Below are positions 40,996 through 46,410 of a stretch of DNA of 64,000 bases, piece after piece. Each line of letters begins with the position of its first letter. Position 1 is the first letter of the stretch. The notes under the pieces are model-generated. The model did no database searches and had not been told where the DNA came from. It saw nothing but the letters and a program-made list of their open reading frames with translations. The position numbers were made by a program, and so were the translations under genes. Origin of the DNA: Pirellulales bacterium (GTDB lineage: Bacteria > Planctomycetota > Planctomycetia > Pirellulales > Thermoguttaceae); contig JAFGRD010000141.1 in NCBI GenBank assembly GCA_016935315.1, positions 12,616 through 76,615 of the forward strand, given 5' to 3'.

Positions 40996-42180
40996 CTATC
41001 GTGCGAGACGCGGGGTGAATTCGGCCCTGATCTGCCGCGTGGCGGCAAAGTCGATTCGGCCGGCGTCCAGATCGGGCAGGCCCTGGTGCTGGAAGATGAC
41101 GCGGTGCGTTTCTGCCGAGACGTTTTCGATCGTGCAGGGCGTGGTGCAGGGTGTTCCGTCGGGTCGCAGTTGCCGTACGCCGTCCAGCAGAATCGTGGCC
41201 TCGTACGGCTCGGTGATGAAATTGACCTGCACCCGCGGCGGATTGCCGGGCCAGAAGCAGACGGCGGCCAACGCGGCCGCGGCGGCCAACGCTGCGATCG
41301 AAACCGCGATCCAGCGCCGCCGGCCATGGCTTTCCGCCGCCGGCTTGCGGGGCTCCGCAATCTCGCGGAGCATCGCGTCGGCATCGGCGAATCGCTGCTG
41401 GGGATCCGGCTGGCAGGCCCCCAGGGCCAATCGCACCAGCAGGCACAGGGTCGGGTCGGCCGCTACGTCGGCGGCCCTCTCGCCCAGCCGCGGAAAACTG
41501 TCGGCCGGCAGCCCCGTAACCATCTCGTAAATGGCCAATCCGGCCGCGTACACGTCGGCCCGGGCGTCCATCCGCCCGTCGGGAGGCATGTATTTTTGGG
41601 TACCCACGCGGGAAATCTGCGGATTGGCCTCGGTCAGCAGGCCGAAGTCGGCCAGCTTCAATTGCCCGTCGACAAACAGGCAGTTGGCCGGCTTCACGTC
41701 GCGGTGGACCATGCCGGCCTCGTGCAGCGATGCCAGGCCGGCCAACAATTGGCGGGCACAGCGGAGGCAGTCATTGACGGGCAAGGGACCGTCGCCCAAG
41801 CGGTTCAGCAGAGTGGCCGCTCGATAATCGGCGTCGGGCGACGCCGGCCTTCCGGTCGCATCGTCGGCCAGATCCATCACGTAAAACAGATGCTCGGCCG
41901 TTTGGCCCACGTGGTGAATGGTCAGCAGATTCGCGTGTTGGCGGCGGAGGTTGGCTTCCAGCCGCGTGATCGACGTGATTTCCCGTCCGGCCGGATCGGT
42001 GGTGCCCCGGCGGCGCAGCGAGATCACCTTCACGGCGCGCAGATGCCCCGTGGTCCGATTCGTGGCCAGCCAAACCCGACCGAACCCCCCCTGTCCGATC
42101 GGCCGAATCAACTCGAAGTCGGGCACTTCCGGAACGGTCTCGTCGTCGTCCAGCCGGAATGGTACTGTGGGATCGCACAC
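40996..42180 (-). CDS. Ser/Thr protein kinase with a C-terminal TM helix and an extracytoplasmic PEGA domain.
   Basis: GTG start right after the sigma gene. IGQGGFGRVWLA; HRDVKPANCL; DFGL; TM WIAVSIAALAAAAALAAVCFW; C-terminal ...ATILLDGVRQLRPDGTPCTTPCTIENVSAETHRVIF.... Confidence 0.8.
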   Translation of the reverse strand: MCDPTVPFRLDDDETVPEVPDFELIRPIGQGGFGRVWLATNRTTGHLRAVKVISLRRRGTTDPAGREITSITRLEANLRRQHANLLTIHHVGQTAEHLFYVMDLADDATGRPASPDADYRAATLLNRLGDGPLPVNDCLRCARQLLAGLASLHEAGMVHRDVKPANCLFVDGQLKLADFGLLTEANPQISRVGTQKYMPPDGRMDARADVYAAGLAIYEMVTGLPADSFPRLGERAADVAADPTLCLLVRLALGACQPDPQQRFADADAMLREIAEPRKPAAESHGRRRWIAVSIAALAAAAALAAVCFWPGNPPRVQVNFITEPYEATILLDGVRQLRPDGTPCTTPCTIENVSAETHRVIFQHQGLPDLDAGRIDFAATRQIRAEFTPRLAR

Positions 42181-42191
42181 GGGGCGGAGTC

Positions 42192-42884
42192 CTAGCGTGA
42201 ACGCATGGTTTTCTCGATTCGGGTGGCGACCGACCGCTGAACGGCGGCCGAGGGCTGCAACCGCACGGCCTGTTTGACGCGTTGGTCGAGCCGCCCTTCG
42301 TCGGCGTAGCTTCCGCCGAGCTCCTGCAGCCGCCGAAGCACGCGCCGCCGCGCCTTGTAGGCCGCGTTGCGCGAGAGCCCTGTGATCCTGGCGACCTCGA
42401 AGCCCGACAGCTCGTGGAGCGTCAGCAGCTCGAACGCCAAATACGCTTCGGGACTCGTCTCGCGGCGGACGACGTCCAGCAGCGACATCAGCAAAACGCT
42501 CTCGAAGGCCTGTTCCCAGGCAGCTTCGGGCGCGGGATCGTCGGCAGGCGGCTCGGGCGGCCGATCGTCGCTGTTGCCGCCGCGCGGCCGCACCCGTTCC
42601 GACGGCCGGCGGCGATACTCGGCCACCTTGTTGCGGACCACCATGCCCAGCCAATCGCGAAAACGGCCCCGCTGCGGGTCGTAGCGAAACACGTCGCGGT
42701 GCTCGAAGATCCGGAGCATCACGTCTTGAACCACCTCCTCGGCGGTGTGGTCCGAGCAGCCGCGGTGCCGGGCATAGGCATGAATCAGCGGCCAATAGCG
42801 GTGGAAAAACTCGTCCCACGCCAGCGCGTCGGCTCCGTCGCGGAGTCGTTGAATCAGGGTCACCCTCGTTTTGCCGCTCATCAC
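42192..42884 (-). CDS. ECF-type RNA polymerase sigma factor (sigma-70 family, region 2 + region 4).
   Basis: ...DEFFHRYWPLIHAYARHRGCSDHTAEEVVQDVMLRIFE... region 2; ...LLTLHELSGFEVARITGLSRNAAYKARRRVLRRL... region 4. Immediately upstream of the kinase, like the ECF-STK pairs of Planctomycetes. Confidence 0.8.
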   Translation of the reverse strand: MMSGKTRVTLIQRLRDGADALAWDEFFHRYWPLIHAYARHRGCSDHTAEEVVQDVMLRIFEHRDVFRYDPQRGRFRDWLGMVVRNKVAEYRRRPSERVRPRGGNSDDRPPEPPADDPAPEAAWEQAFESVLLMSLLDVVRRETSPEAYLAFELLTLHELSGFEVARITGLSRNAAYKARRRVLRRLQELGGSYADEGRLDQRVKQAVRLQPSAAVQRSVATRIEKTMRSR

Positions 42885-43009
42885 GTCGGGATTCTACCGC
42901 AGATCGGATGGTTTTCAAGAAAGCCGGGCCGATTTTCCCGCTTCGGCGCATATCTCTATCGGCGGCGGACGGTCCGCCGCACCATCGCAACGGAGTAGCC
43001 GCCTCTCAA

Positions 43010-43281: not shown

Positions 43282-46200
43282 ATGAAAGCCGCCTTCTGGT
43301 CGTGGGTCCTCTGGTGCGCCGTCGCTCCCCAGGTGCAAACATCCCAGACGCCCGAAACCCTGCTCTATATCCGCACCACGCCCTCCGGGGCCGAAATCTC
43401 CCTGGACGGCAAGCCGCTGGGCACGTCCGACGGGCTGTTTCCAGTCAAGCCGGGAACCTACAAGATCGTCGTCGACTTGCAGGACCACCAGCCCAAGCAG
43501 CAAAGCATCACTCTCCGCGACGGGCAAATCACGCGGATCGAGTTGGAATTGCAGGCCACAGCCGGACGGCGCCGCGCGACGGCGCGCCCGCTGATTCCAC
43601 GGCCTGCCTTCGGCCGCTTCGACGTTCGCCTCGAGCTGCGGGTCGCCCCGGCAGCGCCCGGATGCGAGTTCGCCACACTTGCCAAGGAACACGTCGCCCG
43701 GTACCGGAAGGACCTCCAAACAAAGGGGCCGCTTGCCGGCCGCGTGCCCGAGGCGCTTTACGCCTGGTTCGAGCTGCGGGTCGAGCCGTCGCCGGAACTG
43801 ATCACCGCCGAGTATCAGGGGGCGACCTACGTCCTGCTGTCGAACCGCCCCGACGAGGTCATGCTGGCCTCGCGCGACGGTGCCGACGCCTGGGGACTGA
43901 CGTCGGTCGACGTGACGGCCGACGGTCGCGGAGCGCCGGCCATCGGCGCAGAGATGGACGAGGCCGGCGCGAGGCTTCTGGCGGCCTTGAGCGGGTCGCA
44001 CCTCGGCCAGCGCGTGGCGATACTGCTGTGCGACCAGGTACTGGCAGCGCCGGTCGTCCGCGGCAAGATCTCCGAGAGGATTGCGATCACCGGACAGTTC
44101 GAGCGCCGCGAGGTCGAAGAGCTGGTCGCGGCGTTGAGGGCCAGCCTGGCCCGGCCCGGCGCCGGTGCGCCGACCGCCACAGTCGAGAGCCGCGTGTTGG
44201 CCGACGCCTGTGCCCAAATGTTGGGCGACTTTGTCGCTGCGCGGAAGCAGGCCGGCGGCAAGATCCCCGACGATTGGGATTCTCCGCAGTTCGTTCCCCG
44301 AACGATCGAGCAGTGTAAGCGGCAGTATCCCGGCCCGTTTGCCGTGACGCCGGAAGAGGAACGCCGGTTCACCGCGGGCGAGTTTGATGACGCGGCTGCT
44401 TCGCGACGCGCCGGCGAGGCCATCCAATCGTTGACCAAGGACAAGGTCGAGTTGCCCGCCGGAGCCCAGTACCTCATCGACGAATTCCAGACGGGAAGGC
44501 TCCAAGGGGCCCGGCTGGAACTGGCCGCGCGGTTACTTGCGGCACAGCTCCAGGACACCGCTCAAATGCAGCACCGCTCTGTCCAGACGGCCCTCAAGCT
44601 CCTTGAGACCTCCTTGGCGTGCTATCAGCTCGACCTGGGAGTGTATCCGACGACTGACGAGGGCTTGGCCGCGCTGACCAGCAAGCCGGCCACCGCCGGG
44701 ACCCAAGAGAAATGGCAAGGTCCCTATGCCAGCGAGTTGCCCCGAGATCCTTGGGGCCACGACTATCGATACCGCCGGCCCGGCAAGCACCAGCCGGATT
44801 CGTTCGACCTCTGGTCGGTCGGCCCGGACGGCCTCGACGGCACGGCGGACGACGTGGGCAATTGGCCCGAGCACGACGATGCCGCGGACGACAACCGGCC
44901 GGCCGACCCGAACCGCCGCCCGCGATACTTCGTGCGTCTGGTGTTGGGCGACGACACCATGACCTTGGAAGGTGCCACGACCACGTGGGAGGAGTTGCCC
45001 GAGTTGCTGGAGCGAGTCCCCAACCGCGGACAGACCGTGTTGGAGATTGCGGTCGCGGCGGAGAAGCCAAGCGACAAGCAGCGTGCCGACGCGATGCGTC
45101 GGGCCAGCGGCCTGGCCCGGCGTTTCGGGTTTGAATACCCCAGTATCGTCGGTGTGCATCCCCTGGGGTCAAGGGGGGCGCCGCCCCAGACCGACTCCCC
45201 CAAAGCGGCCCCAGCGCCGGAGACGTCGGACGGAGCGGCCAAGGAGGTCTTGCGGCGCTACAGCCAGGCCGTTTGGGCCGAGGCATTGCCCCGGCTCGAA
45301 TCCGCGTCGGGGCCCGAGGCCACGGAGATGATCCAACAGGTCGCCATGGAGGCGGCGCAGCGCCACATTCTACCGCAGAAAGACCTCGTTGCCCGATACG
45401 CCCTGAGTCGAATGCCCGACGCCGAGCCGGTCGATGCTTCGCAATGGACGGAGAAAGTGGTGTTCCGCCCCGAGGACGATGCGGCCGATTCCCCGCGGCA
45501 ACCGACGGCCTTCTGGCATCCGATCGTGGTGGCAGCCGGACTGCAGCAACAGGTGATGGTCAAGGACATGTCGGCGAAGCGTTTCGGCACGTTTGCCATG
45601 TCGCGCTTCTACGCCCCTGCGCCGACCACCGTCTTGGATCGCAACCTGGACCATCCGGTGATCGCGACGGCCTTCGGCGACCAGTTGCTGGTGGCTCATC
45701 TGCGCCGGGCCGACGACGGTCTTTACCACGGCGAGCAGGTCCGCTGGCTGACAAAGCGGCCCGCGGCCACGCAGGATTACTTCCTGCTGCCGGTCGGCGC
45801 CACGCCGGCGCAGCGGCTCGTTCACACCTTCAGCAAGATCGTCTGGAACGACTTGCTGCCACGGTTGGCCGGGCAGGAGCCGGAAGTCCTCGCAAAGGAA
45901 TTGGGGAGGTTTTCCCGTCGCTTTTTCGTCAAACACCACGAGCTGCTGAAGGCCGAAGGCGAGCGGCTCCTGGCCGAATTGCCGAAGTCGGAACCCATCG
46001 ACTTCTCGCAATGGACATCCCGCTTCCCGGAAACCACCGACGAAATGTCTGAGGCGATGCGGCACGCGATGGCCTCGGAGCGGGCTGATATCGGTATCGG
46101 CGATGTGCACCTGTGCTTCAACCCGGTCCAGATGGCGGCCATGATGCAGCAAACCACGCTGGCCAGGCTGGCCGGCCCGGGAATGCTCGGGCTGCGTTCG

Positions 46201-46410
46201 ATGGTGCGGGCGGCGGCCGTGTATCCCTTGGACGCGATCCTCGACGGCGATCCCCAACGGCCCGCCATTGCCACACGGATGGGCGACGAGCTGTCCATCG
46301 TCCGCTTGCGTCGCCAGCCCAACGGTGCCTACGAATTCGACCGGATTGAGTGGCTGGTCCGTGCGAAGGCCGATTCGAAAGCGACTAAGGCGGCGCCCCG
46401 TCGCAAGTGA
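43282..46410 (+). CDS. Large secreted chimeric protein: N-terminal PEGA domain, SecD-P1-head-like domain, internal GspG (T2SS pseudopilin)-like domain, ExbD/TolR-like domain, and a C-terminal region of unknown function.
   Basis: PEGA: LLYIRTTPSGAEISLDGKPLGTSDGLFPVKPGTYKIVV. SecD-like: ...QRVAILLCDQVLAAPVVRGKISERIAITGQFERREVEELVAALRA. GspG-like: ...YQLDLGVYPTTDEGLAALTSKP...WQGPYASELPRDPWGHDYRYRRPGKHQPDSFDLWSVGPDGLDGTADDVGNW. ExbD-like: ...YFVRLVLGDDTMTLEGATTTWEELPELLERVPNRGQTVLEIA.... Confidence 0.7.
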   Translation: MKAAFWSWVLWCAVAPQVQTSQTPETLLYIRTTPSGAEISLDGKPLGTSDGLFPVKPGTYKIVVDLQDHQPKQQSITLRDGQITRIELELQATAGRRRATARPLIPRPAFGRFDVRLELRVAPAAPGCEFATLAKEHVARYRKDLQTKGPLAGRVPEALYAWFELRVEPSPELITAEYQGATYVLLSNRPDEVMLASRDGADAWGLTSVDVTADGRGAPAIGAEMDEAGARLLAALSGSHLGQRVAILLCDQVLAAPVVRGKISERIAITGQFERREVEELVAALRASLARPGAGAPTATVESRVLADACAQMLGDFVAARKQAGGKIPDDWDSPQFVPRTIEQCKRQYPGPFAVTPEEERRFTAGEFDDAAASRRAGEAIQSLTKDKVELPAGAQYLIDEFQTGRLQGARLELAARLLAAQLQDTAQMQHRSVQTALKLLETSLACYQLDLGVYPTTDEGLAALTSKPATAGTQEKWQGPYASELPRDPWGHDYRYRRPGKHQPDSFDLWSVGPDGLDGTADDVGNWPEHDDAADDNRPADPNRRPRYFVRLVLGDDTMTLEGATTTWEELPELLERVPNRGQTVLEIAVAAEKPSDKQRADAMRRASGLARRFGFEYPSIVGVHPLGSRGAPPQTDSPKAAPAPETSDGAAKEVLRRYSQAVWAEALPRLESASGPEATEMIQQVAMEAAQRHILPQKDLVARYALSRMPDAEPVDASQWTEKVVFRPEDDAADSPRQPTAFWHPIVVAAGLQQQVMVKDMSAKRFGTFAMSRFYAPAPTTVLDRNLDHPVIATAFGDQLLVAHLRRADDGLYHGEQVRWLTKRPAATQDYFLLPVGATPAQRLVHTFSKIVWNDLLPRLAGQEPEVLAKELGRFSRRFFVKHHELLKAEGERLLAELPKSEPIDFSQWTSRFPETTDEMSEAMRHAMASERADIGIGDVHLCFNPVQMAAMMQQTTLARLAGPGMLGLRSMVRAAAVYPLDAILDGDPQRPAIATRMGDELSIVRLRRQPNGAYEFDRIEWLVRAKADSKATKAAPRRK

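Follow-up and report, generated by a model that had tools for sequence, protein, structure and literature searches.

A PEGA-headed modular protein encoded divergently from an ECF sigma factor and Ser/Thr kinase pair in a Pirellulales bacterium

A 1042-residue protein of a Pirellulales bacterium is named 'type II secretion system major pseudopilin GspG' in its NCBI record. It is encoded in the 64,000-nucleotide stretch of contig JAFGRD010000141.1 analysed here (the window). A sequence-only reading had described it as a secreted chimera of PEGA, SecD-head-like, GspG-like and ExbD/TolR-like modules that might serve as a scaffold or adaptor tied to secretion or motility machinery. The locus raises the question of what a single, probably exported chain carrying copies of parts from several envelope machines is for, and whether it belongs to any of those machines.

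Modules of the 1042-residue protein

The features of the locus are collected in Table 1. The open reading frame (ORF) contained both peptides quoted in the sequence-only reading, and its GC3 of 0.82 was typical among coding ORFs in the window. That reading had allowed that the frame might be split in better assemblies. The NCBI record (longest contig 111 kb) and a separate 6.5-kb Logan assembly contig hold the identical 1042-residue protein, and thus the ORF is not split elsewhere.

Table 1. Features of the locus, in window coordinates
Feature	Coordinates	Strand	Residues	Evidence or remark
Ser/Thr protein kinase	40996..42180	-	394 aa	Pkinase E 3e-32, 112 bits
ECF sigma factor, divergent neighbour	42192..42884	-	229-230 aa	PF04542; TIGR02937 70.6 bits
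Sigma-70-like promoter TTGAAA-16-TAGAAT	42891..42918	-		Ahead of sigma gene
Bipartite promoter-like motif GGCCGATT-N12-CGCATAT	42927..42953	+		Points at modular gene
Inverted repeat/hairpin GCGGCGGA-CGG-TCCGCCGC	42962..42980	+		Just downstream of bipartite motif
Whole ORF, PEGA-headed modular protein (probably exported)	43282..46410	+	1042 aa	Uninterrupted ATG-to-stop
Probable Sec signal peptide, MKAAFWSWVLWCAVAPQVQT...	43282..43353	+	1-~24	Sequence, alignment, hydropathy scan
M1, PEGA domain, conserved family head	43360..43557	+	27-92	Pfam PF08308
M2, SecD/F P1-head-like	43579..44166	+	100-295	PF22599
M2 Pfam core	43861..44142	+	194-287	SecDF_P1_head
M3, helical module, no named family	44167..44556	+	296-425	Homologous segments in 16+ proteins
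M4, GspG-type globular pseudopilin domain	44563..44865	+	428-528	PF08334
M5, divergent ExbD/TolR-like periplasmic domain, unannotated family	44890..45216	+	537-645	
M6a, first copy of ~195-aa repeat	45217..45816	+	646-845	Internal repeat
M6b, second copy of repeat	45817..46407	+	846-1042	Internal repeat

The N-terminus is a probable Sec signal peptide, as judged from a short stretch that was hydrophobic in all six aligned relatives; its hydrophobic core is too short for a transmembrane (TM) helix. A lipobox was ruled out by the lack of a conserved Cys. No hydrophobic segment of TM length was found anywhere in the protein by a Kyte-Doolittle scan. The PEGA head that follows (E 1.4e-9, 38.1 bits against a gathering cut-off of 20.8) had a mean column identity of 74% across the six aligned relatives and kept a pLDDT of ~70-74 even within a poor full-length model.

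The second module matched the P1 head subdomain of SecD/SecF (PF22599, E 5e-14, 52.5 bits against a cut-off of 27) and also TIGR01129 secD (E 6.5e-10), and it recurs in many relatives, often duplicated. In SecDF, the P1 head is a mobile periplasmic subdomain that touches the emerging preprotein. Unlike SecDF, the 1042-residue protein lacks the 12-TM body (RND-like, 6+6 TM) and has no full-length match, the NCBIfam SecD/SecDF models scoring 19-39 bits against cut-offs of 244-1249; here the head is a free-standing extracytoplasmic module. The helical module M3 had no Pfam match and no sequence relative in the PDB.

The domain M4 is clearly homologous to GspG/EpsG (TIGR01710, PF08334; PDB 3FU1, 4LW9, 1T92), with an E-value of 6.9e-29 to T2SSG (100.5 bits against a cut-off of 21) and of 1e-21 to solved GspG/EpsG structures, and the likeness extends to the C-terminal G-P-D-G-x-D-G-T-x-D-D loop region. 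The TIGR01710 score of 94.5 bits was just over the cut-off of 88.85, and the alignment covered model positions 28-133 of 134 and residues 424-528. Since it begins at model position 28, M4 lacks the leader and the hydrophobic helix, as the sequence-only reading had it for an internal domain without a prepilin leader; a hydrophilic helical module precedes the domain, which starts at residue ~424. In contrast to GspG, M4 sits in the middle of a 1042-residue chain, with no gsp operon, no class III leader (Gly(-1), Phe/Met(+1), Glu(+5)), no N-methylation site and no hydrophobic alpha1N helix.

The ExbD/TolR likeness of M5 was found at the level of fold and of profile-profile comparison. The M5 segment had no Pfam match at all, PF02472 matched neither the whole protein nor any of 24 homologous M5 segments, and an M5 profile found no ExbD/TolR chain in the PDB. 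The predicted structure of M5 (pLDDT 89), by contrast, appears to have five strands and two helices arranged as in ExbD (PF02472; PDB 2PFU, 8P9R, 5BY4), its top Foldseek matches were ExbD, and hhalign aligned M5 with true ExbD-type modules of relatives at 76% probability (E 2e-5). The earlier assignment is thus plausible for the fold and failed in sequence-level profile searches. In contrast to ExbD/TolR, the protein has no N-terminal TM helix, and no exbB/tolQ gene lies nearby. The M5 family carries the motif ...FVRLVVG.d.MTFEG..TTWeeLp.LLekVP.R..TVLEIA...GFEY.S..GVHPLGSKG.

The C-terminal part is a tandem repeat, whose copies M6a and M6b (residues ~646-845 and ~846-1042) share 27% identity (E 9e-20). 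Paired M6-M6 also occurs in relatives P0008, P0011, P0016, P0017 and P0019, and M6 had no relative in Pfam or the PDB.

The protein is built of six kinds of module, namely PEGA, SecD P1-head, GspG-type globular and ExbD/TolR-like domains and two unannotated kinds. The four by-eye identifications were correct, that of ExbD at the fold and profile-profile level only, and the PEGA, SecDF_P1_head and T2SSG domains all scored above their curated Pfam cut-offs. The helical module (residues 296-425) and the tandem ~195-residue repeat (residues 646-1042) had been overlooked.

A combinatorial family of PEGA-headed proteins

Among 153 representative relatives, 42 module arrangements were found, and an N-terminal PEGA head was common to 78. 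These counts rule out a one-off chimera. Two to four of these modules are joined in one chain in dozens of relatives. The 1042-residue protein is the largest family member seen and the sole one of the 153 with all six module kinds; the sequence-only reading had known of no described protein with its combination, and the full set was absent from every other protein in the 150 best representatives that an exhaustive search gave. The tails of relatives consist of T2SSG, HMBD, ExbD, HEAT plus Big_5, DUF7256 or no domain recognised by Pfam, and some are beta-helix/pectate-lyase-like. The N-terminal 320 residues share 60% identity with P0002 and the C-terminal 400 residues share 47% with P0008, both of them PEGA-headed, which fits recombination within the family better than random fusion.

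Some of the modules also occur in membrane proteins, where M5, M2 and M3 occupy the positions of sensor ectodomains in kinases and multi-pass proteins. In P0035, a kinase domain is followed by a TM segment and three M5 copies, and in P0034, P0041 and P0030 multi-pass N-terminal regions are followed by M2, M3 or M5; of these three, P0034 alone had a confirmed Peptidase_M56 (BlaR1) domain. The SecD P1 head, the GspG head and ExbD-like domains thus circulate as free-standing extracytoplasmic modules beside at least three unannotated families. Domain databases would gain from their description, which also prompts the question of what such domains bind outside their machines.

The divergent sigma factor and kinase genes and the intergenic region

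The sequence-only reading had suggested a check for neighbouring ECF sigma factor and Ser/Thr kinase (STK) genes, and this proved productive. A sigma factor gene and a kinase gene lie upstream of and divergent from the PEGA-head gene in each of the 15 related loci whose upstream sequence is included (the window, L002-L012 and L014-L016). In the window, 11 nt separate the sigma stop codon from the kinase gene downstream of it. Identities between loci were 54-69% for the sigma orthologues and 57-72%, over full-length matches, for the kinases, while the outer flanks were unrelated. The sigma factor, kinase and PEGA head are co-conserved in Pirellulales, Thermoguttaceae, Planctomycetaceae and Phycisphaerae, and the tail is exchanged wholesale. 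One Thermoguttaceae metagenome-assembled genome (MAG) has three PEGA-head loci, with the sigma gene upstream in two and a full kinase in one; its third PEGA-head contig begins inside the gene. The suggested tie to secretion or motility machinery did not hold up: no T2SS, pilus, Sec, Ton or exbB/tolQ genes were found within ~10 kb of the ORF, where the neighbours encode DnaA, thioredoxin, GNAT, a PQQ-like propeller, cupin, URO-D, ThuA, MnmA and DUF1570 proteins, and the flanks differ between loci.

The kinase, whose translation contains the HRD and DFG motifs, consists of the kinase domain, a single hydrophobic stretch taken to be a TM helix and an extracytoplasmic PEGA-like domain of ~75 residues. 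PEGA was the top Pfam match of this ectodomain in three of three kinases, yet at 13-16 bits, below the threshold of 20.8. The sigma factor was classified, via NCBIfam, to the ECF superfamily only. Its sigma2.2 motif is TAEE instead of the canonical DAED, T-A-E-(E/D) being invariant in 10 of 10 orthologues, so that an invariant Thr stands in place of the first Asp and two acidic residues are kept. Loss of charge in the DAED motif is the hallmark of phosphorylation-activated ECFs, which need phosphorylation to bind core (PMC8103513, PMC8999054); as TAEE keeps two acidic residues, dependence on phosphorylation is not certain.

The pair resembles EcfP-PknT of Vibrio parahaemolyticus (ECF43) and the planctomycetal groups ECF59, ECF61, ECF62 and ECF217, in that an ECF sigma factor is encoded beside a membrane Ser/Thr kinase and that the cassette contains no anti-sigma gene; the Thr that opens its sigma2.2 motif is likewise uncharged and phosphorylatable (PMC8103513, PMC8999054, PMC7826278). 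The cassette differs from EcfP-PknT in its sigma2.2 motif (STTA in EcfP), in a third, strictly linked gene for the PEGA-headed modular protein, and in a dedicated conserved promoter motif ahead of that gene. No description of such a linked third gene with its promoter motif was found in the searchable literature.

The motif, with the consensus GGCYRATY-N12-CGCATAK, occurred exactly once per locus in 14 of the 15 loci (12 distinct loci plus a duplicate, then two more), was intergenic and always pointed toward the modular gene. By position and conservation it is a candidate target site of the neighbouring ECF sigma factor; it is unlike the textbook ECF AAC/CGT boxes and is not a sigma-70 site. 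The hairpin downstream of it, which shows some compensatory changes across loci (weak), may be either a stem-loop in the 5' leader or an operator. On the other strand, the sigma-70-like promoter was the only such site in 3.9 kb, and equivalent hexamers were read by eye in other loci. The sigma transcript is likely to be leaderless, since this promoter ends 6 nt before the first in-frame start (GTG 42884; ATG 42881).

Candidate roles for the modular protein

A signalling cassette fits the evidence better than a transport machine does, and the modular protein is probably its exchangeable sensor. The strictly linked exported partner, whose tail is the sole variable part of the cassette, and the conserved candidate promoter provide a testable handle on input and output. 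In the reading that we tentatively favour, at a little under even confidence, the ORF encodes the variable third component of a system in which the ECF sigma factor and the Ser/Thr kinase are paired with a PEGA-headed modular protein, the latter being a sigma-dependent, exported and exchangeable input module and feedback element. The kinase would phosphorylate the sigma factor, as in EcfP/PknT-type systems, and the activated sigma factor would transcribe the modular gene from the conserved motif. The product would be exported by Sec to the periplasm, where the constant PEGA head would dock onto the single small PEGA-like ectodomain of the kinase and the tail would supply ligand specificity. 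For the 1042-residue protein, likely ligands would be extended or unfolded polypeptides and components of envelope machines. A PEGA-like ectodomain of ~75 residues is too small to account for diverse inputs, and the heavy-metal-binding domain in some tails fits a sensing role, as does the placement of M5, M2 and M3 in sensor-ectodomain positions elsewhere. Counted against this reading are the TAEE motif, the unlikeness of the promoter motif to AAC/CGT boxes and the sub-threshold PEGA match of the ectodomain.

The arrangement has a functional analogy, with no relationship in sequence or fold, to CpxP-CpxA/CpxR and CnrX-CnrY/CnrH: a small signalling operon lies beside a gene whose exported product is the apparent target of the pathway itself and a possible modulator, from the periplasmic side, of the membrane transducer. 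The cpxP gene is divergent from cpxRA, as the modular gene is from the sigma/kinase pair. The cassette differs in having a Ser/Thr kinase as transducer and an ECF sigma factor as output, and in the huge size of the modular protein, whose tail varies combinatorially by exchange from one paralogue to another.

A broader proposal, which we regard as rather doubtful, is that such loci form an undescribed planctomycete signalling class with the sensor outside the kinase, in a separate exported protein whose constant PEGA docking head carries a plug-and-play tail. In the 1042-residue protein the tail would be a string of decoy copies of periplasmic working parts from the Sec, T2SS and Ton/Tol machines. 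If this were true, a cell could keep watch on clients or partners of its envelope machines and pass the signal by way of a Ser/Thr kinase to an ECF sigma factor, and with M3, M5 and M6 the family would add at least three extracytoplasmic domain families to those described.

The modular protein may instead be output only, an envelope effector switched on by the sigma/kinase pair, with the PEGA head anchoring or localising it, the tail doing the work and no feedback to the kinase. This is a reading to be taken seriously, if not a probable one. Examples would be a periplasmic holdase or chaperone, with SecD-head-like and ExbD-like modules binding unfolded secretory proteins, or a structural or adhesive protein anchored to the cell wall or surface. 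The conserved promoter-like motif points at the gene, which argues that it is at least a target, and because one motif is shared by all loci, paralogous cassettes should activate one another, which would make the paralogues a co-regulated set and fits an output regulon as well as a sensor. Pfam describes PEGA as related to S-layer proteins, some tails of relatives have Big_5, HEAT and beta-helix/pectate-lyase-like domains typical of surface or enzymatic proteins, and a conserved role in anchoring would account for the co-conserved head just as well. However, an output-only role leaves unexplained the input of a kinase whose ectodomain is small and invariant, gives no reason why the modular protein alone varies in cassettes that are otherwise 60-70% identical, and does not account for M5, M2 and M3 at sensor-ectodomain positions in other proteins.

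The scaffold or adaptor of the sequence-only reading, docking on the T2SS pseudopilus, SecDF and ExbBD/TolQR to couple or regulate them, is possible but improbable. Three modules are homologous or similar in fold to periplasmic parts of those machines. The PDB titles 8pek, 8p9r and 8vgd cover a dimer of the ExbD periplasmic domain and its complexes with TonB and D-box peptides, and thus a decoy copy could plausibly bind such partners. Set against this, T2SS, Sec, Ton and pilus genes are absent within 10 kb and do not recur in related loci, relatives swap the modules for HEAT, Big_5 or HMBD while keeping the same neighbours, and pseudopilins assemble by an N-terminal helix that M4 does not have.

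An artefact, with several genes joined into one ORF by mis-assembly or frameshifts, a concern with a MAG and an architecture unique among the relatives seen, is very unlikely given the identical ORF in two assemblies, a uniformly high GC3, the dozens of relatives that join the same modules in one chain, and ends that match PEGA-headed relatives. That the protein serves type II secretion as a (fused) major pseudopilin, as its database name and TIGR01710 score would have it, is scarcely credible and is rejected, because the match is limited to residues 424-528 of 1042, a prepilin leader, a hydrophobic N-terminal helix, a TM segment and nearby secretion genes (within 10 kb) are all lacking, and T2SSG domains occur in tandem in 11 of the 153 representatives and together with a PEGA head in nine. 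The GspG annotation is a domain-level over-call, and the naming a systematic mis-annotation, corrected here, that arises where one internal domain passes the TIGR01710 cut-off.

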